The notes under the pieces are model-generated. The model made no database searches and was not told where the DNA came from. It saw only the letters and a list, made by a program, of their open reading frames with translations. A stretch of DNA of 64,000 bases from Minisyncoccota bacterium (GTDB lineage Bacteria > Patescibacteriota > Minisyncoccia > Phycocordibacterales > SBAW01), in assembly GCA_035546615.1 (NCBI GenBank), contig DASZWM010000003.1:92902-156901 (forward strand). Direction: 5' to 3'. The translations under genes and the position numbers were made by a program. Below are positions 1,382 through 64,000 of the stretch, piece after piece. Numbering within the stretch: the stretch's first letter is position 1; each line of letters begins with the position of its first letter.

Positions 1382-1467
1382 GAGCTTATTGTCTAGCGGA
1401 GCGAGTGAAAAGTAAAGCTTGCTTTCTTTTACGAGCGGAGCGACGACAATATCCGGGCCTTGCCCGG

Positions 1468-3483
<2,016 letters not shown>

Positions 3484-3513
3484 TTAGTGCTTCTTCAGGC
3501 CGGAAGCCAGCCC

Positions 3514-4035: not shown

Positions 4036-4036
4036 A

Positions 4037-9062: not shown

Positions 9063-9071
9063 ATATGCAGT

Positions 9072-10136
9072 TTACAGCAATCGCTCCAGGTTCTTGGGGT
9101 TCCCCGAGCGGCTGTACGCGCTCTCGGCCGTTATCTCCCCCATGCGCACCAGCTCGGCCAAGCTGCGATTCATGTCTATCATGCCGTCCTCGCCGCCGGT
9201 CTCGATGACCGTCTGTATCTCGTGCGTGCGCTTCTCGCGGATGAGATTGGCGACCGCGCTGTTGGCGACAAGCAATTCATAGGCCGGGATGAGCCCGCCG
9301 GAGATGCGGGGCACCAGCCGCTGGGAAAATATGCCCGCAAGCGAGCCGGCCAGCTGGATGCGTATCTGCTCCTGCTGGCCCGCCGGGAACGTGTCGATGA
9401 TGCGGTCGATGGTCTGCGACGCGTTGTTGGTGTGCAGGGTCGAGAACACGAGATGGCCGGTTTCGGCGGCGGTCACGGCTGTGGCCATGGTCTCGGGCGT
9501 GCGCATCTCCCCTATCATGAGCACGTTCACGTCCTGTCGAAAAACCGAAGCGAGCGCCGTCTGGAAGTCGGCGGTATCGACGCGCACCTCCCGCTGGTCG
9601 ATGAGCGACTTCTTGTTCTCGAAAATATACTCGATAGGGTCCTCTATCGTGATGATGTGCTCGGTGCGCTCGTTGTTTATCTTTTCTATCAAAGCCGCGA
9701 GCGTCGTGGTCTTCCCTTGCCCCACCGGCCCCACCACCAGGAAGAATCCCTGCTCGCGCGCGGTAAAGGACTCAAGCGACGGCGGCAGATTGAGCTCGGC
9801 GATGGTGCGGATCATTCGCGGGATAAGCCTGAGTGCCACGCTTACCTGGCCGCGCTCCACGTACGCGTTGCCGCGGAAGCGCGCCTTCTCGCCGTAGGAA
9901 TATGAAAAGTCGGCTTCCTGCGTCTCCGTGAACGCCTTCATGCGCTCCGGCGATATCATCTCGGCCAAGTAGCCGCGCATGTCCTCGGGAGTGAGTATCG
10001 GTTCGGAAAGAAGCGGCGCCAAGGCGCCGGATACGCGCATGACCGGCTGGATGCCCGCGCCCATGTGGAGGTCGCTTGCTCCTTGGGCTATGAGCTTGTC
10101 TATAAGAGCCGCTAATTTTTCCTTGTACTGGGGCAT
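9072..10136 (-). CDS. pilT: Twitching motility/retraction ATPase PilT
   Basis: Walker A GPVGQGKTTT, GHLVFSTLHTN and AIRNLIRE-like VANLIREKRTHEI motifs. Confidence 0.85.
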   Translation of the reverse strand: MPQYKEKLAALIDKLIAQGASDLHMGAGIQPVMRVSGALAPLLSEPILTPEDMRGYLAEMISPERMKAFTETQEADFSYSYGEKARFRGNAYVERGQVSVALRLIPRMIRTIAELNLPPSLESFTAREQGFFLVVGPVGQGKTTTLAALIEKINNERTEHIITIEDPIEYIFENKKSLIDQREVRVDTADFQTALASVFRQDVNVLMIGEMRTPETMATAVTAAETGHLVFSTLHTNNASQTIDRIIDTFPAGQQEQIRIQLAGSLAGIFSQRLVPRISGGLIPAYELLVANSAVANLIREKRTHEIQTVIETGGEDGMIDMNRSLAELVRMGEITAESAYSRSGNPKNLERLL

Positions 10137-10139
10137 GAG

Positions 10140-12011
10140 TTAGACTTTTATTTCCTTTTCGGGCGCGGCCGGCGCATCTGGAGCGTCATCGCCGTCCCCA
10201 TCCTCGGAAAGGGCTATCGGGGCCGGCGTTGGCTCGGCCTCGGGAGTATCGTCGAGCTCGAACTCGCCGCCGAGCGTGTTCACTTCCTCAAACGGCACCG
10301 TGCCCTGCGCTGACTTGATGATAGCATCCTCCTTCATGGTGAGCATGCCGTTCTTGCGCGCTATCGAGAACAGCTCGTCCTCCGGCTTGCCGGCGAGTAT
10401 CGCGTGCTCGAAGTCGGAGTTCATGCCCCACATCTCGAACGCCGCGATGCGGCCGCGCGTGCCCGACGGGCAGTCGGGAGTGACGTCCACGCGGTACATC
10501 TCGTCAAGCGGCGGTATCTCCTTGCGGTATTCCTCCGGCAGGTCCGCGAACTGCTTGTCGAGCATCTCCTTGGTGCTGGAGTCGACTTCCACTTTTTTGC
10601 CGCCGCCCGGGCACAGGGTCTTCACCAGGCGCTGCGCCATGCCGAGGATGAGCACGGGCGGAATGAGGTACGGTTCCACGCCCATGTCCAGGAGGCGCGG
10701 GATGATACCGACGGAGTTGTTGGTGTGGATGGTCGAAAGCACGAGGTGGCCGGTCAGCGCCGCCTGCACCGCAAGGTTGGCGGTCTCGGCGTCGCGGATC
10801 TCGCCCACCATGATGATGTTCGGGTCCTGGCGGAGCGTCGTGCGCAAGCCGTTGGCGAACGTGTAGCCTATTTCCGGCCGCACCTGCGACTGGGAGACGC
10901 CGGGTATCGTGTATTCGACCGGGTCCTCGAGGCTGAGCACGGTCTGCTTGTCGCGGTCCACCTCGTTAAGGAGCGCGTAGAGGGTCGTTGATTTGCCCGA
11001 GCCGGTCGGTCCCGAGATGAGTATCATGCCGTACGGCTTCTTTATCGCGGTGCGTATCATCTCGAGATTGCGCTTGGAGAGCCCGAAGTCCTCGAGCTTG
11101 AGGACTTTCGCGGAGGCCCCGAGAATTCTCATCACCACCTTCTCGCCGTAGTAGGTCGGGAACGTCGAGACGCGGAAGTCCACCTTGTTGCCGGCCACGC
11201 GCGCGGAGAAGCGGCCGTCCTGCGGCTTGCGCTTCTCGTCGAGCTTCATGTTTGAAAGCACCTTGATGCGCGCCACGACGGCCGAATGCACCTTGGGCGG
11301 CAGGGTGATGTTGGTTACAAGCACGCCGTCGATGCGGAAGCGCACGCGCGTCTGGTCGGCGAGCGGCTCTATGTGGATGTCGGACGCGCGCTGCTCGGCG
11401 GCGTGGCGCAGGACGGTCGCCACAATTTTGGTGACGGGCGCGTCCTCGGTTATCGCCTCCGCGCCGGTGTCGGTAATGATGTCCTCCTCGAGGCTGATGG
11501 AGCGCTTCTTGCCGTCCTTCCCCTCCTTCTGCGCTTCTATAGTGCTTTCGGTGTCGAGCTCGCCGAGCGCCTTGCCCACCTCGCCGGAGAGTCCTTTGTA
11601 CTGCTGGAGCAGGTGCTCGAAATCGGTGTCGGTAATGAGGAATATCTTGTACGGCATGCCTACCTTTGCGGAAATGAAAGTGAGCGCGTCGCGCGCTTCC
11701 AGGTTGTCCGGGTCGACGATGCCGACCTCAAGCGCGCCGTCGACTATCCCCAGCGGCGCAAAGCGGTAGTGGCGCGCGCTTTCCTCCGGCACGAACCGGA
11801 GCACCTCGAAGGGCACGTTCTTGTCGCCCACCTCGCGCGTCGGGAGGCCGTAATAGTCCCCCTTGGCCTTGAGCACCATAGGGAGCGTAATGCCGGCGGC
11901 CTGCAGCACGCCCTCGACGGTCGTGCCCGGCTTTGCGAGCTCGGCGCGAAGCTCGGCCGCCTTCGCGCGGTCAAGCGTCCCTGAATCGATTAAGAGTTGA
12001 AAGAGGTCCAT
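10140..12011 (-). CDS. pilB: Type IV pilus assembly ATPase PilB/GspE
   Basis: 623 aa, N-terminal GSPII domains, Walker A GPTGSGKSTT, tetracysteine region (CPGG...CPSG), acidic C-terminal tail. Confidence 0.85.
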   Translation of the reverse strand: MDLFQLLIDSGTLDRAKAAELRAELAKPGTTVEGVLQAAGITLPMVLKAKGDYYGLPTREVGDKNVPFEVLRFVPEESARHYRFAPLGIVDGALEVGIVDPDNLEARDALTFISAKVGMPYKIFLITDTDFEHLLQQYKGLSGEVGKALGELDTESTIEAQKEGKDGKKRSISLEEDIITDTGAEAITEDAPVTKIVATVLRHAAEQRASDIHIEPLADQTRVRFRIDGVLVTNITLPPKVHSAVVARIKVLSNMKLDEKRKPQDGRFSARVAGNKVDFRVSTFPTYYGEKVVMRILGASAKVLKLEDFGLSKRNLEMIRTAIKKPYGMILISGPTGSGKSTTLYALLNEVDRDKQTVLSLEDPVEYTIPGVSQSQVRPEIGYTFANGLRTTLRQDPNIIMVGEIRDAETANLAVQAALTGHLVLSTIHTNNSVGIIPRLLDMGVEPYLIPPVLILGMAQRLVKTLCPGGGKKVEVDSSTKEMLDKQFADLPEEYRKEIPPLDEMYRVDVTPDCPSGTRGRIAAFEMWGMNSDFEHAILAGKPEDELFSIARKNGMLTMKEDAIIKSAQGTVPFEEVNTLGGEFELDDTPEAEPTPAPIALSEDGDGDDAPDAPAAPEKEIKV

Positions 12012-12023
12012 AGCAGGCCATAC

Positions 12024-12314
12024 CTATAAGGGCGCGAACGGATTGCGCCGCCCCGCGTTCTCGGGCGGGATCTGCACGCCGTAGTCGGTAAGCGAGGTGA
12101 AAATGGGGTCGCTGAAGATGCTCGAGTCCAGGCGGATGACGGTAAGGTTCGAGAGCGTCGTAAGCACGTCAGCCGACAAGGGCGAGGCCTGCGGGATCTC
12201 CAGCAGGGTGTTGTTCGCCGGGCCGCCGGAGAAGTACGTCATATACAGCCACCAGGCGAGCACCGCCGCGACGACGAGGCCGATATACAGTTTGTTGTCT
12301 TTAAGGAATTGCAT
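12024..12314 (-). CDS. Small single-pass membrane protein (possible PilP-like pilus assembly component)
   Basis: 96 aa, N-terminal TM, C-terminal RRNPFAPL; position between pilO and pilB. Confidence 0.35.
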   Translation of the reverse strand: MQFLKDNKLYIGLVVAAVLAWWLYMTYFSGGPANNTLLEIPQASPLSADVLTTLSNLTVIRLDSSIFSDPIFTSLTDYGVQIPPENAGRRNPFAPL

Positions 12315-12321
12315 GGTGGTG

Positions 12322-12873
12322 TTAATGGAGCCAGTAGGTCCGGATAGAAAGCGTGTAGTCGCTGAGGCCGGTTTCCGTCGCGGCGAACTTTATCTCCTCC
12401 ACGTCCACGACGCGCAGACTGTGCTCGAGGTCCTGCAGGAACGCGAGGAAGTCGTCGTACGACGCCGAGAGCGTGAATCCGAGCGACACCGACCCTATCG
12501 CGTCTCCCGACGCCCCGACCGCGGCGGCGCTGCGCGCGGAGGCCGCGTCGGAAACGCTCCCGAGCTGCACATTCTTGAGGCTGAGCCCGTGGCGCGCGGC
12601 GATGTTGTTTATGTCGATGATGAGGTGGATATTGTCCACGTTGTCCGGGAGTATCTCCTCGAGCCGGTCCTTGTTCTCGACCGAGAAGGTGTTGAACGCC
12701 GCGGTCTTCTGGTCGCGTATCTTGCGCAGCTCCTGCGACTTGTCGAGCGCTTCGTCGTACGTCTTCACTTCCGCCTGGAGGCTCTTGGTGCTTTGATAGG
12801 TCGGATTGGTATACATAACGAAGAGGCCGATTGCGGCCAGGACGAGGAGGATGGGCAGTGCGAGTCTGGTCAT
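12322..12873 (-). CDS. pilO: PilO-like pilus assembly protein
   Basis: 183 aa, N-terminal TM + coiled coil, operon position after pilN. Confidence 0.5.
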   Translation of the reverse strand: MTRLALPILLVLAAIGLFVMYTNPTYQSTKSLQAEVKTYDEALDKSQELRKIRDQKTAAFNTFSVENKDRLEEILPDNVDNIHLIIDINNIAARHGLSLKNVQLGSVSDAASARSAAAVGASGDAIGSVSLGFTLSASYDDFLAFLQDLEHSLRVVDVEEIKFAATETGLSDYTLSIRTYWLH

Positions 12874-12877
12874 GATG

Positions 12878-13561
12878 TTATTGGGCGGCTTTTGGCGCTC
12901 CTGACGAAGGGGGCGTTGTGGAGGCGGCCGGAGCCGCGGGCGTCTGGGGCGCGGCGGTTTCCGCCGGGGGCAGCGACTGCGGCGCGGCGAGGTTCTTGGC
13001 GTATGAGATGAGCGCGGAATCCACCGTAGCCGTTACATGGAACGATACGGCGCCGCTATCTTTTATCGCGATGTCCGAGAAGAGGAGGTCCTTGAGCACC
13101 TTGCTCGCGCCGAACTGGTCGGATTGGAGCGCCACGCCGGAGAAGCTGTCGGCCACGCCGGAGAGAGTGATGTCAGCCGACCCGTCGTCCTTCAGCTCGT
13201 AGGAGAATTCCGTCAGCTGGACGCTTTCAAGCGTCTGCTGCGCGAGGAAGTAGAAGATCGCCGAAGGGGCGATGTGCTTGTTGAGGACCGCGCGGGCCTG
13301 GGTCAGGCGGGTATCGAACCGCACGAGCAATTGGATGCTGGGCAGGTCAAACGCCTCCTGGTACTTAACCAACGAGTCCTTTTTGTCCTGGAGCGACTTG
13401 TCGAGCAGGCGCGTATACGCGAAGGCGCCGCCCGCGGCCGCGATGGATGCGACGAAGAAGAGCACGGCTATAAGGAGAATGAGGCCGGAGAAGCCGCGCA
13501 CGCCGCGCGCCTCGACAAGCGGCTTCTTGGGTATGAACGATGCCTGGAGCGAAGGATCCAT
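12878..13561 (-). CDS. pilN: PilN-like fimbrial assembly protein
   Basis: 227 aa, N-terminal TM, Pro/Ala/Thr-rich C-terminal tail, follows pilM. Confidence 0.5.
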   Translation of the reverse strand: MDPSLQASFIPKKPLVEARGVRGFSGLILLIAVLFFVASIAAAGGAFAYTRLLDKSLQDKKDSLVKYQEAFDLPSIQLLVRFDTRLTQARAVLNKHIAPSAIFYFLAQQTLESVQLTEFSYELKDDGSADITLSGVADSFSGVALQSDQFGASKVLKDLLFSDIAIKDSGAVSFHVTATVDSALISYAKNLAAPQSLPPAETAAPQTPAAPAASTTPPSSGAPKAAQ

Positions 13562-13659
13562 CTTGGGCTTAATTATATAGTATGAAAAAACATCGCATGA
13601 GAGCTATCAACAAGCGAGTTCGCGCAGTTGATAGCAAATTAAATAGTCAACATGGTCTT

Positions 13660-14769
13660 TTATCCGACTTCCTGCAGCCGTCTGAGCGCCAGCCCCACCG
13701 CCACCGCAAACTCCGGTCCCGCTTCTTTCAGTATGCCTTCGAGGAAGGCGGGCGCCTGGGTCTTTCCGAACGGGTCGGCGAGCCGTATCTCGTTGGGAAT
13801 CTTGCTTTGGGCGAATTCCTTGAAGCCTTTCAGCGCCGCTCCCCCGCCGGTCGCTACCAGAGTGCTCAGGGTCTGGTTGGTGCGCTGCTCGTAGCCGACT
13901 ATTGTGCGCGAGAGCTCGGAGAGAAGCGGCGCCAGCGACAGCTCGAAGGACTGCACCAGCTGCGCCGTTACCTCGTTCTGCTGGGCGGCCGTGGGCGCGA
14001 GGCCGACCTTCCTCTTTCTCTCCTCGGCCTCCATGACCGAAATGTTGAGCGCGCGCGAAGCGGCGAGCGTGAGGTTCTGCGAGCCCTGGTTGATGATATG
14101 GCTCTCGTGTATGAGCCCGCGCTCGACGACATAGAACTTCGTCGTCGCCGCGCCCATGTCAACGACCGCCACCGGCGCCAGGCCGTGCTCGAGCGCCGCG
14201 CGCACCGCGCTGAAGACCTCTATTTCGAAAAACGCCACCGCAAGCGCCGCGTCGGAGGCTATTGCGCGGAACTTCGCGATGGTGTCGTTATGTATCGCCA
14301 CCAGGAGCACTTCTATCTTGTCCTGCTCTCCCTTGGCGGCGGCCTTGTCGTTGCCGACCACGAACCAATCGAGCAGGACTTCGTTTATGGGCACCGGGAT
14401 ATACTTGCGCGCCTCGATAGGCACGACCTGCGCCAGCTGCTTCTCGACCGTAGCGGGGAGCTTAATGATGGAAATGAGGCTCGAGGAGTACGGAATGGAT
14501 ATCGCCGCGTCGGCAGTGGTGACATTGGCCTCGCGGATGACATCCTTGAGCGCTTCTGATATCTTGTCGGCCGGAAGCGAGGTCGCGCGGCCTATCTCCA
14601 CCCCCGCATAGGGGCCGAGCGATATCGCGCCGTAGGTTTCCAGTATCACCTTCCCCTTCTCGCGCCTCAGCTGCACGACCTTTATGGCCGAGGTACCGAT
14701 ATCCACCCCAAGCACGCTATGCGCTTCCTGCGAGAACATTTTAGAGAAATCAGGGATAGAGAACGCCAT
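13660..14769 (-). CDS. pilM: Type IV pilus assembly ATPase-fold protein PilM (actin-like)
   Basis: 369 aa, N-terminal GVDIGTSAIKVV actin/Hsp70-fold phosphate-1 motif, first gene of pilMNO. Confidence 0.75.
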   Translation of the reverse strand: MAFSIPDFSKMFSQEAHSVLGVDIGTSAIKVVQLRREKGKVILETYGAISLGPYAGVEIGRATSLPADKISEALKDVIREANVTTADAAISIPYSSSLISIIKLPATVEKQLAQVVPIEARKYIPVPINEVLLDWFVVGNDKAAAKGEQDKIEVLLVAIHNDTIAKFRAIASDAALAVAFFEIEVFSAVRAALEHGLAPVAVVDMGAATTKFYVVERGLIHESHIINQGSQNLTLAASRALNISVMEAEERKRKVGLAPTAAQQNEVTAQLVQSFELSLAPLLSELSRTIVGYEQRTNQTLSTLVATGGGAALKGFKEFAQSKIPNEIRLADPFGKTQAPAFLEGILKEAGPEFAVAVGLALRRLQEVG

Positions 14770-14807
14770 ATAGAAGAATATCTTCCTTATTATACCATTT
14801 TATATCC

Positions 14808-15419
14808 ATGCTTCGCGCGATTTCCTCATTGTTTGCCTCTTTGGTCGGCCTGCTTATCCCGCCGCGGCGCAACGAGCGGGTCGTTGCGGCGATGACGCTC
14901 GATGATCTGGAGCAATTGCGCGCCGAGGACGGGCTTCCTTATCGCGACGAGCGCGTCAGGGCGTTTATATGGGAGCTTAAATACAACAAAAACCCCCACG
15001 CGCTCAGGCTTGCGGGCGAATTCCTGGCCGAAGACCTGCTCGGCATCGCCGAAGAAGAGCTGGGCCGGCCGCTGTTGGTGCCTATTCCCATGCATGCAAC
15101 AAGGAGGCGCGAGCGCGGGCACAATCAGACCGAAGCTTTATGCGAAGCGGCGCTCGCATTCGTGAACGATTCATTCGAGTACATGCCGAACGCGCTTGCG
15201 CGCATAGCACATACGCCGCCTCAGCAGGGACTTCCCCGCCGCAAGCGGCTTGAAAACCTTATCGGCTCGATGCAGGCAAATGCAGATGCGGTTCGGGGCC
15301 GCGTATGCGTCGTCATGGACGACGTTTCTACGACGGGCGCCACGTTTGCGGAAGCCAAACGCGCCCTGCGCGAAGCCGGCGCCAAGCGCGTGCACCCGGT
15401 CGCGCTTGCTCGCTCCTAA
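14808..15419 (+). CDS. ComF-family phosphoribosyltransferase (ComFC-like), N-terminal zinc-finger absent
   Basis: C-terminal PRTase motif VCVVMDDVSTTGATF; no CxxC pairs at N-terminus. Confidence 0.6.
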   Translation: MLRAISSLFASLVGLLIPPRRNERVVAAMTLDDLEQLRAEDGLPYRDERVRAFIWELKYNKNPHALRLAGEFLAEDLLGIAEEELGRPLLVPIPMHATRRRERGHNQTEALCEAALAFVNDSFEYMPNALARIAHTPPQQGLPRRKRLENLIGSMQANADAVRGRVCVVMDDVSTTGATFAEAKRALREAGAKRVHPVALARS

Positions 15420-34657: not shown

Positions 34658-36019
34658 TCAGAAATCTATCTTGGCTTCCGCATTAGCCTCCGGCGCGATA
34701 GCCTTGGTGCCGAGATAGTCGCGGATGCGCTGGGCCAGGAATCCCGCCGAAATAGGTTCCCCCATCACGACGAATACTTGCTTGAGGCTTTCGGCGGTCT
34801 GATTGACGAACTCAAGGAGCTGCTCTGAATCCATGTGCGCGGAATAGCCGTAGATGGCCTCGATGCGGCAATGCACGAAGGTTTCCTGCCCCTGGAGCCG
34901 CACGTGCCGCTCCCCTTCCACCAGCCTGCGGCCAAGGCTCCCCGCCGCCTGATAGCCCACGACAAGCATGGTCGACTTCTCGTCAGGAAGCACGTACTTC
35001 TGATGCTCGTGCACGCGGCCGCCGTTGCTCATGCCGCTTCCGGCGATGACTATCTTCGGGCCCGGAAGCGCAGCCACCTTGCGCGACTCATCAGCGTTCT
35101 CGACGAACCGGAGCTCGGGAAAGGTAAAGATATCCTCCCCCTTCTCCAGCCGCTCGCGGATGGGGGCCGAGAAATACTGCGGGTACTTAAGGTACGCGGC
35201 CGTTATCTTTTGCGCCAGCGGCGAATCCGCGTACACCGGCATGCTTGGTATGCGCTTCTCGAGCATGAGCGCGCGGATGTCGAAGAGGAGGTCCTGCGTG
35301 CGCTCGGTCGAGAATGCCGGTATAAGGAGAGTGCCCTTTCGCGCGGCAGTGTCTTCAATGATGTCTTCGAGCTTCTCCCGATGCTCGCTGTCCTTGCTGC
35401 GCACGCGGTCGCCGTAGACGCTTTCCATCACCAGGTACTTCACGCCGCTCAGCGCGTCGATCTGCGGCAGCAGCAGAGAATTGCCGCTGCCTAGGTCGCC
35501 GGTAAACACGAGGCGCGTATCGCCGCGCGAAAGCTCGACGAGGCCCGAGCCCAGGATATGCGCCGAGTTGAGAAACCGGAACGATACGCCGTCCGCGAGC
35601 TCCTGTTTTTCGTGAAATGGAACGCCTTCCCACATGCCCATTGCGCGGGCAATATCCGCTTCGTTGTAGAGCTCTTCGCGGCCGTGCTTGCGCGCGTCGT
35701 GCGCGAGCAGTTCCATGCTGTCCAGGAGCAGGGGCTCAGCGAGCGCCTTCGTCGCTTCGGTCGAGATGATGCGGCCCTTAAAGCCGTCGCGAACGAGCTT
35801 CGGGATGCGGCCGATATGGTCAACGTGGGCGTGGGTAACGATAAGGACCGGAATGGAGGCGGGGTCGTAGGAAAACGGCTGCCAATTCAGTTCCTCCGCC
35901 GCATGCCTCCCCTGCGAAAGCCCGCAGTCTATCAATATCTTCGAGCCGCCCGTGTCGAGCAAAAAGTTAGAGCCCGTGACGGCGCCCGCGCCGCCGCAGA
36001 AGCGAATAGTCGATTGCAT
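34658..36019 (-). CDS. Beta-CASP family MBL-fold ribonuclease (RNase J/CPSF-like)
   Basis: HAHVDH motif, beta-CASP motifs, RMMBL-like C-terminus; start at MQSTIRF. Confidence 0.6.
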   Translation of the reverse strand: MQSTIRFCGGAGAVTGSNFLLDTGGSKILIDCGLSQGRHAAEELNWQPFSYDPASIPVLIVTHAHVDHIGRIPKLVRDGFKGRIISTEATKALAEPLLLDSMELLAHDARKHGREELYNEADIARAMGMWEGVPFHEKQELADGVSFRFLNSAHILGSGLVELSRGDTRLVFTGDLGSGNSLLLPQIDALSGVKYLVMESVYGDRVRSKDSEHREKLEDIIEDTAARKGTLLIPAFSTERTQDLLFDIRALMLEKRIPSMPVYADSPLAQKITAAYLKYPQYFSAPIRERLEKGEDIFTFPELRFVENADESRKVAALPGPKIVIAGSGMSNGGRVHEHQKYVLPDEKSTMLVVGYQAAGSLGRRLVEGERHVRLQGQETFVHCRIEAIYGYSAHMDSEQLLEFVNQTAESLKQVFVVMGEPISAGFLAQRIRDYLGTKAIAPEANAEAKIDF

Positions 36020-36032
36020 CGCGTTATTGTAA

Positions 36033-36062
36033 CAAAAAATCCCACCGAGGTGGGGTTCTTTA
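36033..36062 (-). terminator. Hairpin plus U-run between ndk and ribonuclease gene (terminator/attenuator)
   Basis: minus-sense ccccacc-tcg-gtgggattttttgtt, only ~17 nt before next ATG. Confidence 0.45.
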
Positions 36063-36253
36063 TCGGACTCCGGAGGCAAGCGTCTACTTTTGTGCAAAGT
36101 GGGTGTTCTAAGCGGTACACCACGGTGCCCCGCCACAACGAACTCCCTGTAGATCACTTAAGGACATTTGCCTCCGCAGTCCTGCCTTTAAGTATAGCCC
36201 TCCGCTTCTGAGATGCAAATGAAGAATTCCAGCAAGGTTTCACCTTGAGAAAA

Positions 36254-36841
36254 TTACTCGTCTATCCCAAAGCGCTTGTATTTGTGTATCGCGTTCTTGC
36301 CGAACCAGTGGCTTATCTCGTGCTTGGCCTCTTCGGGCGTCTCGCTTGCGTGCACGAGGTTGAAGACCGCGCGGCGCTCGGCATTGGCGTTAACCGGAGA
36401 GTCCGCGGAAAAGTCGCCGCGTATGGTGCCCATCTCGGCAAGGTACGGCATGGTAGGGCCTACTATTTTACGCACCATATCTACCGCGTGCACGCCCTGT
36501 ACCACTATTTTCACCATCGGGGCTGAAGACATAAAATCCAGCAGCCAGTTGCGCACGGTTTTGCCCACGCGGGTGAGGTCGGACGTGCCGAAATCCTTTT
36601 TGACGTCCTGGCCGTACTTGGCGTAGGTCGCCATCGTCTTCTCGCCCAGCCGGCGGATCCACTTCTCGTCCTTGGGGTAATGGTTGTCCATTTCCTTCCG
36701 GGTGGCGTGGAACATCTCGAGCGCGACTATCTTGAGGTCGCGCTGCTCGAAGCGCTTGAGTATCTCCCCCACCAGGCCCTTGCGGACGCCGTCAGGCTTG
36801 ATAAGGATGAATGTCTTCTCCTCCTTGGGGCTCATTTGCAT
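36254..36841 (-). CDS. ndk: Nucleoside diphosphate kinase (long form)
   Basis: NLVHASETPEEAKHEISHWF active-site region; GVRKGLVGEIL N-terminus. Confidence 0.8.
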   Translation of the reverse strand: MQMSPKEEKTFILIKPDGVRKGLVGEILKRFEQRDLKIVALEMFHATRKEMDNHYPKDEKWIRRLGEKTMATYAKYGQDVKKDFGTSDLTRVGKTVRNWLLDFMSSAPMVKIVVQGVHAVDMVRKIVGPTMPYLAEMGTIRGDFSADSPVNANAERRAVFNLVHASETPEEAKHEISHWFGKNAIHKYKRFGIDE

Positions 36842-36886: not shown

Positions 36887-37195
36887 CTATTCCTCTTCTT
36901 TTTTAGCGCGCTCTGTGAGGTCATCATAGACTATTTTTGCGTCTTTCAACCGCCCCTCCTGCCTTTTGGCCGCTTCTTCGTAATTTTTGATCGCCGTCTC
37001 CATTTCCAGAATCTCTTCGCCTGTCAGCGACCCTAGCGCCCGGCCCCTTTGAAGGCCAGCCCTTAGTTCATCCGCGTCCTTCTTACCTTGTTCCAAATCT
37101 ACCTCTGTTTCTTCAATGAAATGGCCTACTCTTGCTAGCCGGACCGTAAGGCTCTCCTGAGGGTCTTGTCCTGGGGCTCCGGGAGGTTTTTCCAT
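36887..37195 (-). CDS. Small coiled-coil protein, immediately downstream of T4CP-like ATPase
   Basis: 102 aa, heptad-rich, Glu/Lys-rich. Confidence 0.35.
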   Translation of the reverse strand: MEKPPGAPGQDPQESLTVRLARVGHFIEETEVDLEQGKKDADELRAGLQRGRALGSLTGEEILEMETAIKNYEEAAKRQEGRLKDAKIVYDDLTERAKKEEE

Positions 37196-37202
37196 TCTGG
37201 TA

Positions 37203-39989
37203 TTATATCCCGCTTGCGGCCAAACTCGCCGGCTCTTGGGTCATGCCCGCGCCCGCAAGGCTTTGTGCCACTTCAGCCTCTACTTCAGCCCTGGAGCGCC
37301 CGTATTTGAGGCTTGAGAGCTCCTGCATCTGGGCAACATTGTCGGCATGGCCCGGCTCAAACGGCAGCGTTTCTATGTTAAAAGGCTGGCTGGGCTTGCC
37401 GTTGATAAGGAGCTTCAGGTACGCGTTGCGGTTGTCGATATTCATGAGGTCCGCTGCCTTGAAGGTAGGCGCGAACTGCTTTTCCAAAAACTCGGCGTCG
37501 GTCGCGCCTACGCGGAAGGCGCACAGGCTTCCGACGTTGCCGAACACCGCGTCGCGTATCTCATCGGTAAGCTGGGCGATGAACTGATGCGCTACAGTCA
37601 GCGACAGCTTGTATTTGCGCGCCTCGGAGAAGATAGCGGCGATGGACGGCGTCGTAAAGTTCTGGAATTCGTCGATATGGAGGTAGAACGGCGGCAGGTC
37701 CTTCCCGACCGAGTCGGCCCGGGACAGCGCGGCGATGAGGAACTTGCCTACGATGACGAGGCCGAGCAGGTTGGCGTTGAGGTCGCCGATGCGGCCCTTG
37801 GCCAGGTTCACGAGCAGTATCTTCTTCGTATCCATAAGCTCGCGGAAATTGAATGATGACTTCTGCTGAGCGATGATGGGCCGCACTATCTCGTTGGTCG
37901 TGAACGCGTCGAACTTGTTGGTAACGTACGGCGCGTAATTCTCGAGCCCCTGGTCGCCGGAGGCCTTCATGGCAATATCCTGCCAGAACCTGGAGACTAT
38001 AGGATTACGGCACGCGGCAAGCTTGCGCGCGCGGAATTCGCCGTCGCTGAAGATGCGCGCGATGTCGAGCAAGGTGTTGCCCGAAGCCGGGTCTTCCATC
38101 ACCAAAAGCGCGGCGTTGCGGAAGTACTGCTCGAACGCCGGGCCCATGCTTTCGGGCACCGCGCCGAAGAGCTTCTTGAATATGCCGAGCAATTCGTCCA
38201 CGACGAGCGTCTTCTGCTCGGGGCGCGACTCATCGTACTCGAGCATGTTGAGCGCCATAGGCCGGTCTGTGGCGCCCGGGTCGAAATAGATGACGTCCTG
38301 CATGCGGTTTTCAGGTATGCGCGAAAGAATGTCGAGCACGTCGGAGCCGTGCGGGTCTATCATGCACAGCCCCGCGCCGGCCTCGATATCCTGGATGATG
38401 ACGTTCTTAAGCAATGTCGATTTGCCGGTGCCGGTCTGGCCGATAACGTACAGGTGGCGCAAGCGGTCCTCGGGGCTCAAGCGCACTTCCTGCGTAGCGC
38501 CGCGGAAACGGTTCACGCCGAGCACCGCGCCGGCGCTCGGGAGCGCCGCGGGCGGAGCCGATACGGAAGCGCTTTCCTGGCGCAGCTCCGGCGCCGCAAC
38601 CTTGCTGCCCGCGCCGGGCATATGCGCCAAAGTTGCGAGCTCGGCGGCCGAAAGCGGCATGGCGGTAGCGGCATCCAGGGTCCGATATGAAAAGGCGTGG
38701 ACAAAATTTCTGAGCTTGCGCGCAGGAATACCCGCGAATTCCAGGCCGTTGCCCGCCGTATCGGTAAACTGCCGGAACGGCCCTTCAATATCGCCCAGTA
38801 TCGCCTGCGCGCGCTCCCCGGTTGCCGCGGAAGCGACAATGCGAATATTGGCGTGGAGGATCGGGCTCGCAACCTTGGCTTCGATGTTCTTGATGCGCGG
38901 ATCGTCCGCGCCGGGCCGCTCGTCGGCGGCGAGCTTTTTTGAAGAAGAAAAGAGGTCCGTAAAGAATCCGGCGGCGCCCGACTTGATATTGGTCGCGGTC
39001 TTAAGCGGCACGCCGGCGCGTACTTGTTCAAGCGCGTAGCGATATTTCTTGAGCAGGCCGAAATCCTGCGGGGAAACGATAAACTGCACGGCTGCCCCCT
39101 CCGCCGCGGCGTCAAGCTTTGAGAACGAGTTCAGAAGCACGTCGAGCGGATCGTTCGGGAACGACTCGTATGTGCGCAAAGAGTATATCGGCCGGTGTTC
39201 AAGCGTCGCGGCCGCCGCAGCCACCTGCGAGCCGGGCGCGAAGGCGTTGTAGTCGTCCGGGCGCTCGATAAGCCGCGCGGCCGGGTACAGGCTGAGCAGC
39301 TGCTTCTCGAACAGCTCCTTCCGGGCGCGGGGCACGGCCACATACAGGCTCGTTTCCTTGGCGCCAGCGGGGTTCGCTATCTCGAACGAGAAATACTCGT
39401 CGTGCGCCGCATCCATCTGGAGCATGCCGCGATAGAACTGCTCCATAAGCGATATGTAGTCGTGCACGGCCCGCGAAGGGTCGGTCGGCTTTTCCGCGTC
39501 AGCGCTCCCCGGCAGGGTCACTTCATAAAGCGTCATCCCCAGAGCGGCGCGATACTGCCGCTTATCCGCTTCCTTGGCGGGCAATCCTTCTTTTATGTAT
39601 TCGACGAGAATACGGTGGAAGTCGTCTATGAGATGCGCATTGCCGGTGGCTTCGGCGGCGGCAATAGCGCGACTTACGCCGTGCGCCTGCAGTATCGCGA
39701 TAACGCCGCCCATCTGAGCGTCGTGCTCCTCTGGGCTCAGCTGCAGGGTAAAAGCCTCAGGATGCGCGAGCACCTGCGCGTCCAGTGTCCGTTGCGGCGA
39801 CACCTCCCGGCTCCATTTCTCGACGACCGCCTGCTGGGCGGCCGCGCTCGGAGCGGCCTCCTGCGGCACGCCTTCGCGCTTGAGGCCCGCCTCAAGCTCG
39901 GCCGCACGCGCCTTCAGGCTCTCTATTTCCTGGCGCGCGGCGTCAGAGGCCGCGCGAATTTCAAGGCTCCCAGCGCCTTTCACTTCCAT
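37203..39989 (-). CDS. VirD4/TraD/TraG-like type IV coupling-protein-type P-loop ATPase (FtsK/HerA superfamily) with ~520-aa uncharacterised N-terminal region
   Basis: C-terminal half: Walker A GQTGTGKST, IDPHGSD (cf. DPKG), Walker B IDEFQNF, VAHQFIAQL (HQ box). Confidence 0.6.
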   Translation of the reverse strand: MEVKGAGSLEIRAASDAARQEIESLKARAAELEAGLKREGVPQEAAPSAAAQQAVVEKWSREVSPQRTLDAQVLAHPEAFTLQLSPEEHDAQMGGVIAILQAHGVSRAIAAAEATGNAHLIDDFHRILVEYIKEGLPAKEADKRQYRAALGMTLYEVTLPGSADAEKPTDPSRAVHDYISLMEQFYRGMLQMDAAHDEYFSFEIANPAGAKETSLYVAVPRARKELFEKQLLSLYPAARLIERPDDYNAFAPGSQVAAAAATLEHRPIYSLRTYESFPNDPLDVLLNSFSKLDAAAEGAAVQFIVSPQDFGLLKKYRYALEQVRAGVPLKTATNIKSGAAGFFTDLFSSSKKLAADERPGADDPRIKNIEAKVASPILHANIRIVASAATGERAQAILGDIEGPFRQFTDTAGNGLEFAGIPARKLRNFVHAFSYRTLDAATAMPLSAAELATLAHMPGAGSKVAAPELRQESASVSAPPAALPSAGAVLGVNRFRGATQEVRLSPEDRLRHLYVIGQTGTGKSTLLKNVIIQDIEAGAGLCMIDPHGSDVLDILSRIPENRMQDVIYFDPGATDRPMALNMLEYDESRPEQKTLVVDELLGIFKKLFGAVPESMGPAFEQYFRNAALLVMEDPASGNTLLDIARIFSDGEFRARKLAACRNPIVSRFWQDIAMKASGDQGLENYAPYVTNKFDAFTTNEIVRPIIAQQKSSFNFRELMDTKKILLVNLAKGRIGDLNANLLGLVIVGKFLIAALSRADSVGKDLPPFYLHIDEFQNFTTPSIAAIFSEARKYKLSLTVAHQFIAQLTDEIRDAVFGNVGSLCAFRVGATDAEFLEKQFAPTFKAADLMNIDNRNAYLKLLINGKPSQPFNIETLPFEPGHADNVAQMQELSSLKYGRSRAEVEAEVAQSLAGAGMTQEPASLAASGI

Positions 39990-40022: not shown

Positions 40023-40784
40023 TTACAATTGCGTCAAAACCTCAGGGCCGTCCTTCGTAAGCAAGATCGTATGTTCCGAATGCGCGGCGCGCGAACCGTC
40101 TTTAGTGCTGTAGGTGTAGCCGTCGCCCTTGTCCTTCATCGCTCCGGAGCCTTCGGCGAAGATAGGCTCGATCGCGATAACCAATCCCTCCGGCATTTTC
40201 TCCCCCGTTCCTGCCTTGCCATAATTCAAAATGCTCGGCTCTTCATGCACCGCCTTTCCCACGCCGTGGCCGCGAAGGTCCTTAACGATGCCGAGCTTAT
40301 AGCGCTTGGCCGCCGCCTCGACCGCAGCGCCTATGTCGCCGGTGTAACCGCCCGCTTTCGCGGCCGCGATAGCCGCTTCAAGCGCTTCCTCAGTGCCTGC
40401 TATAAGATTCTGGCCCTTGGCATCGGCCTTCCCCACCGCGACCGTATGCGCCGTGTCCATAAAATATCCCTGATACGAGAGTCCGAAATCGATTGAAACC
40501 ACGTCTCCCGCGCGCAAGATTTTGTCAGGCGAAGGCGGGCTATGCGCGATATCGTCGTTTATGGAAACGCACAGGGCCGCAGGGTACTTTTTTTCTCCCT
40601 TGGTCTTGTAGCCGAGGTACGACGGCTTTGCGTCAAGCCGCTTCGTGGCCGCGCGGGCAACTTCCTCAAGCTCCATCGAAGACACATTGGGCGCGACCTT
40701 CTCCAGCACCTCGCGCACCACCTGCGCCATGCGCCTGCCCGCCTCGCGCAGGCCGTCTATTTCTTTTTGCGTCTTCGCTATCAT
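40023..40784 (-). CDS. map: Methionine aminopeptidase type I
   Basis: Pita-bread fold metal ligands region (DVVSIDFG... HGVGKAVHEEP ... IAIEP); start at MIAKTQKEI. Confidence 0.85.
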   Translation of the reverse strand: MIAKTQKEIDGLREAGRRMAQVVREVLEKVAPNVSSMELEEVARAATKRLDAKPSYLGYKTKGEKKYPAALCVSINDDIAHSPPSPDKILRAGDVVSIDFGLSYQGYFMDTAHTVAVGKADAKGQNLIAGTEEALEAAIAAAKAGGYTGDIGAAVEAAAKRYKLGIVKDLRGHGVGKAVHEEPSILNYGKAGTGEKMPEGLVIAIEPIFAEGSGAMKDKGDGYTYSTKDGSRAAHSEHTILLTKDGPEVLTQL

Positions 40785-41383
40785 GAAAGCCCGAGCTTTG
40801 AGAGAATGTCCGCATGCACGTCCTCGATGCTGCGCTCGCCCTGTATCTCGACCACCTTGTATATCGGGTTGCCATCGAGGCGGGCGCGGATCTTCATCCA
40901 TTCGGCGCGGGTCCAGGCGAGGCGCTTGCGGATAATGTCCTCGGTGTCATCGGCGCGCGCGCGCTTGATGAGGCGCTTTACGCCCTCCTCGTCTGAGATA
41001 TCGATATGTACCACCGTGCACGACGGCCGCTTGTAGAAGGCCATCGTTGCGTCCACCACGTCCATCTGCGTTTCCGAGCGCGGAAAGCCGTCGGTCACCA
41101 GATGCTCGTCGCCCTTCATATTCTCGATCAGGTACTGCGAGAATACGCTGCTGCTTATGTTGAACGGTATGAGGTCGCCGCGCGCCATGATCTCCTGCAT
41201 GAGCCGGGAGGTGTGGGTGTCGCGGCCCGCGAGGTCGCGCAGGTTCTTTCCCATCTCGAAATGGACGACCGGGCGCGACGGGTCGAGGCGCTTGAGATCG
41301 GCATCGAACATCGTGGCATGCGTCCCCTTGCCGCTTCCCTGCGGGCCCAAAAATATGACTGTCTGTTGTTCCATATCCGCCAT
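40781..41383 (-). CDS. adk: Adenylate kinase
   Basis: P-loop GPQGSGKGT, LID and NMP-binding regions; start at MADMEQQTV. Confidence 0.85.
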   Translation of the reverse strand: MADMEQQTVIFLGPQGSGKGTHATMFDADLKRLDPSRPVVHFEMGKNLRDLAGRDTHTSRLMQEIMARGDLIPFNISSSVFSQYLIENMKGDEHLVTDGFPRSETQMDVVDATMAFYKRPSCTVVHIDISDEEGVKRLIKRARADDTEDIIRKRLAWTRAEWMKIRARLDGNPIYKVVEIQGERSIEDVHADILSKLGLS

Positions 41384-41387
41384 CGTA

Positions 41388-41957
41388 TCACGAGACGAAC
41401 TCCCGGATAACCCGCACGAATTCCTGCTTTGCCTGCTCCAGTCCCCCATTGGGATTGCGGATAACAGCTGTTGCCTGAGCCTTGAAGGCTGTCTCATCCT
41501 CGTACCGCTTGCGGCGCGCCAGGAGCTCCACTTCCGTAATAGGGGCCCGGGAGCGGATGCGCTGTTCAAGATCCTCCCAAGAACCGGCATCGATAAATAT
41601 CATGCGCAGTATATCGGCCGGAACTGCCGTCTGTATCTGGCGGGCGCCCTGTACTTCGACCTCGCGGACCACATTCTTACCCTGTTCGAGCGCCGGGAGT
41701 ATCTCTCCCTTGAGCGTGCCGTAGTAGTTACCTCCATACGAAGCCCACTCCAAAAAGTCTCCGGCAACTTCTCTTTTTTCGAATTCCTCCTTGGTTATGA
41801 AAAAATACTTTTCTCCTTCGACTTCGCCGGGGCGGGGCGTACGGGTCGTGCAGGAGCGCGGAAATATAAGTTCGGGCATCTGTTCGTGCAGATAGCTCAA
41901 CAGGGCGCTTTTCCCGCTACCGGAAGGGCCGATAACGAGAATAAATTTGCCTTGCAT
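41388..41957 (-). CDS. gmk: Guanylate kinase
   Basis: GPSGSGKS P-loop, TTRTPRPGEVEGEKYFF, GNYYGT. Confidence 0.8.
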   Translation of the reverse strand: MQGKFILVIGPSGSGKSALLSYLHEQMPELIFPRSCTTRTPRPGEVEGEKYFFITKEEFEKREVAGDFLEWASYGGNYYGTLKGEILPALEQGKNVVREVEVQGARQIQTAVPADILRMIFIDAGSWEDLEQRIRSRAPITEVELLARRKRYEDETAFKAQATAVIRNPNGGLEQAKQEFVRVIREFVS

Positions 41958-61896: not shown

Positions 61897-64000
61897 TTAG
61901 ATCTCCTGGTAGGAAGGCACGATCGTAACCGTCTTGGAGACGCTGTTGGGAGTACCATCCGGCGCCGTACACGAGAGCTTAAAGGTTGTTGGTTGTGTGA
62001 TGGTCGAGGAGATGCCTGTCGTATTGACCCACGTAGAGCCGGTCTGCGGCCACGGTATTGGGAATGAGGCATCATCCGGGTTGCGATCGATGGAGCACGA
62101 GTCGCTTTCTTTGCCGTTGGCGCCGGTTATGAGGCCGCTTACGCTCCAGGTTACTAGTACGGCACTGCCGCTGCGCACTCGCGCCGGAGTTACCCCAAGA
62201 TTGCACAACCCGCCGGCAATACCGGTGCATGCGGTAAATGAGCCCGAAGGGAGCGAAGCGGCGGTCTGCGCGTCGGTTATGGTAACGGTAGCAGAGGCCG
62301 GCGCGCCGACCGTATAGCTCGAGTCGCCCGGACTCTGAATAGTAAGCGTTACCGGTTCGTTTCCTTCATACAGGTAGTCTTGCGTGGGGGTTACTGTCAC
62401 GTCTACGTACTGCTGGCCCGACGGGATTACGACGGTGGTGCCGGAAGGATTGGTGATACTGCCGCCCGAGAGCGTGTAATCGGTCGTGCGCACGGCATTG
62501 GCACCGCCTGCGGCAAAAGAAAATATAACCGGAAGATCGACAGATAGGTCAATGCCGGGGGTCGTAGGCACGTACGATATAACGATAAGGCCTTGCGTGC
62601 CTGAACCACCTGGACCGCCACTGCCTCTGCCGCCGCCACCGCCGCCGCCATACAAACCGCCGGAGGCACTGTAGGTATTCAGACGCCCGCTACCTCCGCC
62701 GCCGGACCCGTGAGTAGAATCCCATTCCGTGCCTCTTCCTCCATCAACCGGAGGGGCCCATCCAACTCCCCCGGCTCCTCCAAATGCGTTGTCTCCGGTC
62801 CCGCCGCTACCTCCTGAGGTTGATACAGCGTTTGCTCCGTTTCCGCCCGCTCCATGCGGTCCCGCCGCGCCGCCGCCGCCGCCGCCTGCGCCCGCGCCTG
62901 CTTCCGATGCTCCTCCGGTTCCGCCGTCATATTTTGTGGTGCCCCGGCCGTTGGACGCCAGTCCTCCCGCGCCTCCCGGCACGCTGCCGGCAGTCGAAGC
63001 GTTGGTTCCGTTGCGGCCCCCCTCAGCGCCTGCTACTACCGAAGAATCCGTGATGGAGGCACACGCGGTGTTGAAATTGCAAAAATAGGTGTTACCCGCA
63101 TTTGTTCCGCCGACACCCGCAGATCCTATCTGATACGCAACAGGGGTGTTTAAGGTTAAGGATACGTTTGAGACTGCAGAATACGCTCCTCCGCCTCCGC
63201 CTCCGCCCGAACGTGCTGTTGCACTGCCGGTCCCGTCTCCTCCCTTTCCTCCTCCGCCAATGACCTCAATGCTGTTGTTGGATGAATTCCAATCACTCGG
63301 TACGGTCCAGCTGGTTCCAGAAAGGAGGTAGCCCCGACAGACGCCGCCCCCGACGCTGGAACCGAAGCCGCACACAGATGCGCTGCCCGCCCTTGTTATT
63401 CTGAACGTGCCCGTATCGACAGGGCTCTCCGCTGCGGCTGCGTCTTGGGCTATAACGCTAACGGCTGGAGTAGAAGCTATATTCACGGTTGTTTGCACGC
63501 TCCCTATTCCGCTACACGTGAGCGTATATGTGGTGGTTTGGGTAAGGTTGCCCGTTCCTATTGAACCAACGGCTCCGCTGCCAAACAGGCCGGAGCCGCT
63601 CGTATTGCTCCATGCAACGGAGCAGGCCGGATAGGTCGCCTTAAAGAGACCCAGGCCCCAGGTGTTCGCGTCAACGGAGGAATAGCCGATAAGATGCATG
63701 GTCCCCGACAGCTGCGCGAACAGGGCCGGAAAAGAAAAGTAGTTAGGGATAGTCTGCCATATGTTTGTCTTCGTGGTAGCAGATTCGCAGGTGCCCGCCG
63801 CGTTGCCGAAGCATCCCTTGTTGCTGTTGCCGGCGGGATTCCACTTGTATACGTATGCCAAAGGCCAGTCGCTGCCGAGGCGCTGGGAAGTAACCAGGAA
63901 CGTTCCGTCCGGAGTGGTAGTAGAGAGAAGGCCGAAGTTGGCCGAAGGCATCTTTTGGAAGAAGTTCGCGGTCTTCGTGCCGCAGGCGTTCGCGGTGCCG
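61897..64000 (-). CDS. Very large secreted/surface protein with two glycine-rich repeat domains (partial; N-terminus beyond window end)
   Basis: Reading frame open to window edge; blocks GGGGKGGDGTGS...[10 protein letters not shown] and GGGGGGRGSGGPGGSGTQGLIVISY; underlying DNA has GGN/CCN simple repeats (62560-63300). Confidence 0.6.
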   Translation of the reverse strand, partial: GTANACGTKTANFFQKMPSANFGLLSTTTPDGTFLVTSQRLGSDWPLAYVYKWNPAGNSNKGCFGNAAGTCESATTKTNIWQTIPNYFSFPALFAQLSGTMHLIGYSSVDANTWGLGLFKATYPACSVAWSNTSGSGLFGSGAVGSIGTGNLTQTTTYTLTCSGIGSVQTTVNIASTPAVSVIAQDAAAAESPVDTGTFRITRAGSASVCGFGSSVGGGVCRGYLLSGTSWTVPSDWNSSNNSIEVIGGGGKGGDGTGSATARSGGGGGGGAYSAVSNVSLTLNTPVAYQIGSAGVGGTNAGNTYFCNFNTACASITDSSVVAGAEGGRNGTNASTAGSVPGGAGGLASNGRGTTKYDGGTGGASEAGAGAGGGGGGAAGPHGAGGNGANAVSTSGGSGGTGDNAFGGAGGVGWAPPVDGGRGTEWDSTHGSGGGGSGRLNTYSASGGLYGGGGGGGRGSGGPGGSGTQGLIVISYVPTTPGIDLSVDLPVIFSFAAGGANAVRTTDYTLSGGSITNPSGTTVVIPSGQQYVDVTVTPTQDYLYEGNEPVTLTIQSPGDSSYTVGAPASATVTITDAQTAASLPSGSFTACTGIAGGLCNLGVTPARVRSGSAVLVTWSVSGLITGANGKESDSCSIDRNPDDASFPIPWPQTGSTWVNTTGISSTITQPTTFKLSCTAPDGTPNSVSKTVTIVPSYQEI

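Follow-up and report, generated by a model that had tools for sequence, protein, structure and literature searches.

The stretch of DNA analysed here, referred to as the window, is a 64-kb segment (64,000 nucleotides; positions 92,902 to 156,901) of the 157-kb contig DASZWM010000003.1 from a Minisyncoccota bacterium of the Patescibacteria (Candidate Phyla Radiation, CPR); all coordinates are those of the window, with (-) marking its minus strand. At 37203..39989 (-) lies a 928-amino acid (aa) open reading frame (ORF), here called gene X and its product X, which by the ORF list and its translation ends with a stop codon at 37203-37205 and encodes DUF8128 joined to an ATPase of the type IV secretion system (T4SS) coupling protein (T4CP) type. 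X consists of three fused parts: a helical module (residues 1-140; 39570..39989, -), recognised by hhalign comparison with a family of separate small proteins; an alpha/beta DUF8128 core (PF26449; residues 141-465; 38595..39569, -) with a predicted VirB4 N-terminal-domain-like fold; and a P-loop ATPase of the FtsK/HerA superfamily and of the T4CP (VirD4/TraD/TrwB) sequence type (residues 487-880; 37350..38531, -). The helical module is laid out as a coiled-coil helix (16-62), a linker and a helical bundle (84-135) that carries the conserved motifs SPEEHD and HLIDDFHR. X is identical to an NCBI 'DUF87 domain-containing protein' (P0001) from a 'Candidatus Paceibacterota bacterium' metagenome-assembled genome, which confirms that the DNA comes from the CPR.

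The ATPase contains a Walker A motif GQTGTGKS (residues 517-524; 38418..38441, -), invariant in 46 family sequences, an all-alpha insertion between the Walker motifs (residues 591-722; 37824..38219, -) with a mean column identity of 0.79, and a Walker B region FYLHIDEFQNF (residues 768-778; 37656..37688, -) in which D773, E774, F775, Q776 and N777 are invariant in the same sequences. The further motifs IDPHG (544-548), IDEFQNF (772-778) and AHQF (800-803) are invariant or nearly so in the 46 family members. A previous reading made from the sequence only had noted gene X, a 102-aa ORF after it and several motifs of the 928-aa protein, all of which were found where it placed them, and its assignment of the C-terminal half to the VirD4/TraD-like ATPases of the FtsK/HerA superfamily agrees with the Walker motifs and with the matches to PF02534 and TrwB. 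X scores 26.2 bits against PF02534 (gathering cut-off 20.1) and 21.4 bits against TraG-D_C, just below the cut-off of 22, the C-terminal half gives weak matches to T4CP, DUF87 and FtsK models, and the NCBIfam TraD and VirD4-like models match in part; recognition of the P-loop domain by T4CP models is thus marginal and consistent. The only sequence match of X in the PDB is TrwB. As to the all-alpha insertion, TrwB aligns over 361 residues, and relatives of X carry PF10412 (TrwB_AAD_bind) matches. DSSP assignment on an AlphaFold2 model places 7-8 helices at residues 592-720, between Walker A (517) and Walker B (773), so that X is predicted to have the all-alpha domain found at this position in T4CPs.

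No match to X was obtained with the VirB4 models PF03135, PF12846 and PF19044 (CagE_TrbE_VirB, AAA_10, P-loop_TraG), whereas a genuine Patescibacterial VirB4 (locus L003) scores 98 bits against PF19044 and 44 bits against PF12846, and hhalign of the C-terminal domain of X against CPR VirB4 is weak (E 4e-4). X does not fit the FtsK/SpoIIIE DNA translocases, whose marks are a match to the FtsK_SpoIIIE model, a gamma domain and an N-terminus with several transmembrane (TM) segments. A tblastn search of plasmids with the ATPase half returned 718 records, the best at 33-36% identity with E down to 2e-68; the named relatives are all T4CP-type or DUF87 proteins and none is VirB4, and 453 of the records lie on replicons predicted to be non-mobilizable. 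The closest relative of the ATPase half outside the CPR is a 708-aa protein of Bradyrhizobium sp. 131 plasmid p131_1 (L167:7050-9176; 36% identity, E 2e-68), whose N-terminus of about 320 aa does not match a DUF8128 hidden Markov model (HMM). The plasmid is non-mobilizable, and CHAT-domain and TPR genes surround the gene, a setting that resembles a defence or signalling island.

The N-terminal half, about 520 residues that the sequence-only reading could match to nothing, is accounted for by the fused module and by DUF8128. PF26449 is a precomputed Pfam annotation on P0001 and on nearly all relatives; our scans of the region with NCBIfam, PADLOC and a Pfam copy that does not include PF26449 gave no match. 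The AlphaFold2 model, built with the family alignment, covers the full length with a mean pLDDT of 81.9. When this model was compared with the PDB using Foldseek, full-length TrwK/VirB4 chains came first (E 6e-15, about 900 aligned columns, collinear) and TrwB came next, over the C-terminal half only (TMt 0.6-0.66). The full-length match to TrwK/VirB4 leads us to predict that DUF8128 (residues ~141-465) has the fold of the VirB4 N-terminal domain, and X would thus possess a VirB4-type N-terminal domain. In VirB4 this domain is the part that docks the ATPase on the inner-membrane platform of the T4SS.

A sister form of the family bears on the origin of the helical module. Searches with an N-terminal profile also picked up proteins of 790-840 aa whose match is confined to profile positions ~140-488. 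In four representatives of this class a single TM-like hydrophobic helix at the N-terminus precedes the DUF8128 core, and the ATPase is the same as in X. For one of the four, the Wolfebacteria protein P0247, the identity to X is 44% over 747 residues, and its relatives number more than 4,098. The first two loci of this TM-form have a gene of 131-142 aa without a Pfam match directly upstream. A metagenome scan with the small protein gave 80 loci; the downstream sequence is long enough in 72 of them, and in 69 of the 72 a DUF8128 ATPase gene comes directly after the small gene, the gap being -21 to +14 nucleotides (nt) in about 53 of the 69. With hhalign, 70 small proteins align to the first 150 residues of 115 soluble-form proteins, the form to which X belongs, at a probability of 93.7% and E 1.9e-7; the alignment is collinear, with small-protein columns 12-134 against X residues 16-140 and pFILDAFHDAL against HLIDDFHRxL, and it became significant only with the 70 small-protein sequences (an earlier two-sequence comparison gave E 0.0015). 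An HMM of the small family, run against 1,505 ORFs of soluble-form loci, found only X-family proteins, with the main match at N-terminal residues ~14-135. This homology of residues 16-140 to a separate upstream protein of about 130 aa shows that the real small partner is fused at the N-terminus of X. X thus joins partner, DUF8128 and ATPase in one chain and has lost the TM helix, the partner standing in its place. The two forms share the DUF8128 core, the ATPase motifs and a chromosomal location in housekeeping contexts; the TM-form differs in its single N-terminal TM helix and in having the partner as a separate upstream gene. A divergent gene for a PMT_2-type (GT-C) membrane glycosyltransferase of about 500-600 aa lies directly upstream of the small partner and TM-form ATPase genes in 39 of 42 loci (L085-L166), e.g. 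L085:7204-8934 (-), and is absent from the soluble-form loci and the window.

X is the Paceibacteria (CPR) representative of a very large family of chromosomal proteins. A word-indexed search returned 331 homologues of about 910-930 aa at 48-83% identity, of which the best 120 are nearly all full-length at 900-950 aa and carry precomputed matches to PF26449 in the N-terminal part and to DUF87, T4SS-DNA_transf, TraG-D_C or TrwB_AAD_bind in the C-terminal part. When one genome per GTDB species was scanned, at least 594 genomes proved to have a relative, all 80 loci among the matches listed bear Patescibacteria- or Paceibacteria-type labels, and an exhaustive HMM search with the N-terminal profile yielded 2,499 representative clusters. 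In a 46-member alignment mean column identity is 58%, the Walker A and B motifs and many N-terminal residues are invariant, and column conservation is 0.76-0.82 in the ATPase and 0.57-0.67 in the DUF8128 core and the helical segment 84-140. A survey of 3,035 Patescibacteria genomes (PMC12102498; Microb Genom 2025) found VirB4 in 2,417 of them and 5,713 VirD4-type T4CP homologues in 2,918, only 148 of these homologues being near virB4; the X family is likely to be among the 5,713, which is presumed and was not verified. With hundreds of species represented and housekeeping neighbours in most loci, the oddity of an "orphan" coupling protein, as the sequence-only reading had it, disappears. Dispersed T4CP homologues have therefore been published in bulk (PMC12102498), and the family already has database names (DUF8128; 'T4SS DNA-binding domain-containing protein'). 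Our literature search found the name 'DUF8128' in no paper, and no description of the domain anatomy, the fused or split partner or the ribosomal-operon synteny of these T4CP homologues.

Annotation of the flanks with Pfam and NCBIfam identified rpsE, rplO, secY, gmk, adk and map on the minus strand 5' of gene X, and ndk, a beta-CASP RNase gene and a SLOG-family gene 3' of it. The upstream neighbour, the type I methionine aminopeptidase gene map (40023..40901, -), is the last gene of the rpsE-rplO-secY-gmk-adk-map string and probably starts about 35-40 codons inside the called ORF; the downstream neighbour ndk, for nucleoside diphosphate kinase, lies at 36254..36841 (-). Context was compared by clustering the ORFs of 83 related loci. 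The map gene is directly upstream of X in about 26 of the 83 and ndk is downstream in 32, and roughly a third of the loci are arranged as in the window (SecY-Adk-Map-[X]-Ndk-(DUF2238)-betaCASP-SLOG), an order seen both in close relatives (L084 and the P0005 contig) and at only 50% identity (L001). Most other loci have housekeeping-looking neighbours such as Tgt, FKBP, UvrB, RmuC, PBP and DedA, as judged by reading the sequences without a database scan. The composition of gene X (GC 0.62; GC at third codon positions, GC3, 0.78) matches that of its neighbours. This conserved housekeeping context and neighbour-like composition show gene X to be core-like and chromosomal; it belongs to neither a mobile element nor a defence island. 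A simple scan of the minus strand from map through X to ndk found no promoter- or terminator-like site, which is weak evidence for co-transcription; because X is placed after map with no such site recognisable on either side, it may be constitutively co-expressed with the housekeeping genes.

The other large ORFs of the window that were scanned encode LigA, PilB, Pif1, RecG, FtsH, EF-G and similar proteins, and none is VirB4-like. No integrase or relaxase gene was found among the flanking genes scanned, VirB6 and relaxase not having been searched for exhaustively. The earlier statement that no VirB4, VirB6 or relaxase gene is nearby holds, by tblastn, for T4SS genes of the Patescibacterial type in the window, and for VirB6 and relaxase within the limit just given; the window covers 64 kb of the 157-kb contig, and T4SS genes may lie beyond it. 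X adjoins a T4SS-like cluster (PrgI/VirB3, a TrsD/TraC-like protein, a 614-aa VirB4 and a T4SS pilin) in L003 and L005 only, out of 83 loci, and no protein of that cluster has a detectable relative in the window. In the window X thus shows no genetic association with T4SS or relaxase genes of the kind usual for T4CPs, nor is it encoded together with homologues of VirB3, TrsD, VirB6 and VirB8 as VirB4 is.

The 102-aa ORF (36887..37195, -; from the ORF list), which begins MEKPPGAP, had been proposed as an overlapping coiled-coil partner of X, but it starts 7 nt after the X stop codon and is an ORFan restricted to its lineage rather than a conserved partner. Pfam, NCBIfam and PADLOC gave no match to it, nor did tblastn in the 83 related loci, and its sole homologue among 5.8 billion proteins is a 99%-identical 69-aa fragment on a 1-kb contig. 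In L084, where X is 82% identical, ndk follows X after a 42-nt gap without a 102-aa ORF, and an 81%-identical relative has an unannotated 120-aa gene in the same slot. The GC3 of the ORF is 0.505 vs 0.76-0.86 in its neighbours, and its host-codon score is about 0. It does share one feature with other genes in this position: Pro-Pro occurs within the first 14 residues in 10 of the 29 non-Ndk genes (the 102-aa ORF included) that lie within 40 nt after X, vs 36 of 1,351 other ORFs (Fisher p = 7.7e-9, a value that overstates the evidence, the loci not being phylogenetically independent). Because the Pro codons of this x-Pro-Pro (x-PP) motif vary synonymously, the signal lies at the peptide level, and a nucleotide-level cause (CCUCC pairing) is ruled out by the same variation. 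Most of the large x-PP examples (583-916 aa) belong to one fast-evolving family with a highly charged N-terminal region, one or more TM segments and a C-terminal domain, without a Pfam match. In many Paceibacteria this family is encoded right after X, with a gap of 1-11 nt, the loci concerned being L038, L050, L051, L053, L057, L058, L065, L071, L077, L081 and L082. The 102-aa ORF scores no better than shuffled sequences against the N-terminal region of the large family and has no homology to it beyond the motif; it may still belong, as a short or decaying gene, to a class of 'client' genes defined by position. A weakly DUF5663-like family of about 100 aa (20.8 bits, below cut-off) follows the large downstream protein in L038:15310-15621, L058:15192-15491, L065 and L078, and a Rhodococcus homologue of the ATPase (738 aa, plasmid pYYL1.1) is followed by a DUF5663 protein of about 100 aa (L169:8489-8812, 57.7 bits), so a DUF5663-type protein could be a recurrent accessory of this ATPase clade. 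Neither the large downstream family nor DUF5663-like proteins were found in the window by tblastn and HMM searches.

Among known systems, the T4CPs (VirD4, TrwB of R388, TraD, DotL, Cagbeta) share with X the ATPase sequence family (PF02534 and TraG-D_C, with TrwB_AAD_bind in relatives), and the NCBI name for relatives of X is 'type IV secretion system DNA-binding domain-containing protein'. X differs from them in having no N-terminal TM domain, in its additional DUF8128 (about 325 aa) and fused partner module (about 125 aa), and in its position in a ribosomal-protein/secY/adk/map/ndk string and not beside a T4SS or relaxase; against the full-length equivalog models (NCBIfam TraD, TrbC, CD1115) its best score is 43.9 bits, compared with a TraD threshold of 366. 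VirB4 (TrwK of R388; the C-terminal domain of Thermoanaerobacter VirB4, 4ag5) has the same layout of N-terminal domain and C-terminal ATPase, with the Foldseek alignment running over about 900 columns, whereas X matches no VirB4 model and its helical insertion is more T4CP-like. Patescibacteria moreover possess a separate genuine VirB4 with a TrsD-like partner, and X has no profile-level likeness to the N-terminus of that VirB4 or to the TrsD-like protein. The T4CP Cagbeta is regulated by a small helical protein, CagZ (PDB 8dol). The resemblance of X to Cagbeta-CagZ is a conceptual analogy only, the X-type partner being fused or encoded upstream.

By analogy with other ATPases of the VirB4/VirD4/HerA clade, X would be a motor driven by nucleoside triphosphates (NTP) that assembles as a ring, probably a hexamer, and couples NTP hydrolysis to the feeding of a macromolecular substrate into a membrane channel. 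The channel would most likely be the chromosomal, non-conjugative T4SS carried by most Patescibacteria, whose cluster is without a coupling protein of its own; X, encoded in trans, would dock on it through the VirB4-like domain, and the fused helical module may be an integral adaptor or regulator, a role that small proteins have with other T4CPs. We tentatively favour this reading of X as a trans-encoded coupling ATPase of the chromosomal Patescibacterial T4SS, giving it a little less than an even chance, because a VirB4-like docking domain is, to our knowledge, otherwise known only from T4SSs, because the T4SS clusters are without their own T4CP, and because X abuts such a cluster in L003 and L005. 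The essential T4SS cluster of the Saccharibacterial Southlakia, for example, is without recognisable coupling and relaxase proteins (PMC10633639). A number of findings weigh against a coupling role. By hydropathy, neither X nor any of 120 relatives has a TM segment at the N-terminus, the sole peak of X being a buried helix (737-755) in the ATPase core, so that the TM anchor of T4CPs is missing; tblastn with Patescibacterial-type T4SS proteins gave no match in the window; and the support from T4SS context is limited to 2 of 83 loci, which probably reflect one lineage. The likeness of DUF8128 to the VirB4 N-terminal domain appears at the fold level only, in AlphaFold2 models, profile comparison of DUF8128 with the N-terminus of Patescibacterial VirB4 and with the TrsD-like protein gave no signal, and for the ATPase half a structural comparison by itself does not tell T4CP, VirB4 and DptH apart. 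In the survey of 3,035 genomes T4CP homologues are commoner (96%) than VirB4 (80%), the 148 of 5,713 near virB4 (2.6%) are by our own estimate at or below chance for a +/-20-gene window in a genome of about 800 genes, and in S. epibionticum the T4CP homologue is non-essential and the T4SS essential; citing that homologue, the authors hold exaptation of T4CPs to be possible (PMC12102498).

Several of these findings fit a T4SS-independent housekeeping translocase, exapted from a T4CP and acting alone or with another channel in DNA uptake, in segregation or in the handling of the hypervariable x-PP membrane proteins, which we regard as a serious possibility that falls short of likely. The family is near-universal and stands in housekeeping neighbourhoods rather than with T4SS genes, T4CP homologues are commoner than VirB4 and not enriched near virB4, exaptation is itself raised in PMC12102498, the TM-form and its small partner make a self-contained, tightly coupled pair, the fast-evolving PP-motif membrane-protein family recurs directly downstream, and the closest ATPase relatives outside the CPR are mostly on non-mobilizable replicons with no adjoining T4SS genes. 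Set against this are the docking domain, the failure to find a conserved channel partner, the presence of type IV pilus (T4P) or ComFC genes near X in only 1-3 of 90 loci, and the PP-family itself, which occurs in a minority of loci and is absent from the window. An extended version, speculative and unlikely, would make the DUF8128 ATPases a VirB4-VirD4 evolutionary intermediate that kept the VirB4 docking domain and in Paceibacteria became a minimal T4SS-independent machine with a small helical partner, whose clients are the downstream hypervariable membrane proteins recognised by their N-terminal x-Pro-Pro, the 102-aa ORF being a client gene that is short or in decay. If X were instead best classed as a VirB4 paralog, a second and divergent ATPase of the VirB4 type, the collinearity of both domains with TrwK/VirB4 would be explained, and the TM helix and N-terminal domain of the sister form presumably resemble VirB3-VirB4 fusions; this classification is distinctly unlikely given that the sequence models matching X are T4CP-type while none for VirB4 does (the L003 VirB4 reaches 98 bits with PF19044), that the all-alpha insertion and the longer alignment favour TrwB, and that the hhalign match to CPR VirB4 is weak.

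The sequence-only reading had also suggested a defence unit, with X alone or together with the 102-aa ORF acting as an anti-phage ATPase of the HerA, mad8 or DptH type. The PADLOC mad8 model does match residues 511-837 (E 2.5e-13), there are weak HerA matches, and CHAT and TPR genes surround the Bradyrhizobium relative of the ATPase, but the PADLOC match covers the generic ATPase core only and the proposed partner is an ORFan. Unlike patchy defence islands, X keeps to one conserved locus within a housekeeping operon in hundreds of species, its proteins being 50-80% identical; unlike the DptH/DndH C-domain, mad8 and Sir2-HerA ATPases, it has other N-terminal domains, a core-like locus and no linked effector or modification genes, its neighbours being map, ndk, the beta-CASP RNase and SLOG genes, with no nuclease, methylase, Sir2, other effector, MADS or Dnd gene nearby. 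A defence role is very unlikely on these grounds. It is extremely improbable that X is an ordinary T4CP belonging to a conjugative or integrative element, with the remaining genes of that element in another part of the contig: the ATPase is T4CP-type, only 64 kb of the 157-kb contig are in view and L084 indicates that mobile elements can insert near the operon, but relaxases occur in only 103 of the 3,035 Patescibacteria genomes (PMC12102498), the map-[X]-ndk position recurs in many species, gene X has no compositional anomaly, and the scan of flanking genes revealed neither an integrase nor a relaxase. X also has no TM domain, and the TraD/TraG transmembrane N-terminus that the sequence-only reading had named as the mark of an ordinary conjugative element is not present.

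The Patescibacteria (CPR) account for a large part of bacterial diversity, and their epibiotic life depends on cell-surface machines. Their T4SS is essential in the one genetically tractable species, and its energising or coupling component and its substrates are sought. The present analysis gives an anatomy, consisting of a predicted docking domain, a motor and a fused or split partner, to the 'orphan T4CP' family that is most widespread in one of the major CPR classes. Testable handles are the T4SS platform proteins that the docking domain would bind, the role of the partner module, and the PP-motif proteins as candidate clients. If the homology to the VirB4 N-terminal domain is true, it bears on the evolution of coupling proteins from VirB4-like ancestors.

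Elsewhere in the window, a 684-aa ORF at 61897-63951 (-) has no family match except a weak one to Gly_rich_2 (E 0.003). A complete T4P set at 7848-15413 (-), about 23 kb from X, comprises PilC (7848-9062), PilT (9072-10136), PilB (10140-12011), PilN-like (12878-13561) and PilM (13660-14769) genes, all on the minus strand, with a ComFC-like gene (~14940-15413, +) beside it, and this T4P and ComFC arrangement recurs in L085. A linkage of X to T4P or competence genes, which the sequence-only reading had singled out for checking along with the neighbourhoods in CPR genomes, was rejected on the counts of PilB, PilT, PilC, PilM or ComFC in the flanks given above, and the neighbourhoods proved to be mostly housekeeping ones. 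Closer to X, a guanylate kinase gene (41388-41957) lies between secY and adk in the window lineage and in the 81% relative, and not in most other Paceibacteria loci, and the mechanically called adk ORF (40781-41590) overlaps both neighbours, its true start probably being near residue 73-78. In L084 (positions 93-4750), the relative with 82% identity, a serine recombinase gene, a gene with a weak Phage_rep_O match and an NYN-domain gene stand directly upstream of rpsH, which suggests a mobile element inserted into the ribosomal-protein operon. The beta-CASP/MBL RNase gene at 34658-36157 (-), conserved downstream of ndk, scores 407 bits against the NCBIfam model 'type VII CRISPR-associated Cas14' (cut-off 800) and 292 bits against aCPSF1, and is probably a housekeeping RNase J/CPSF-like enzyme, not a CRISPR-associated one.

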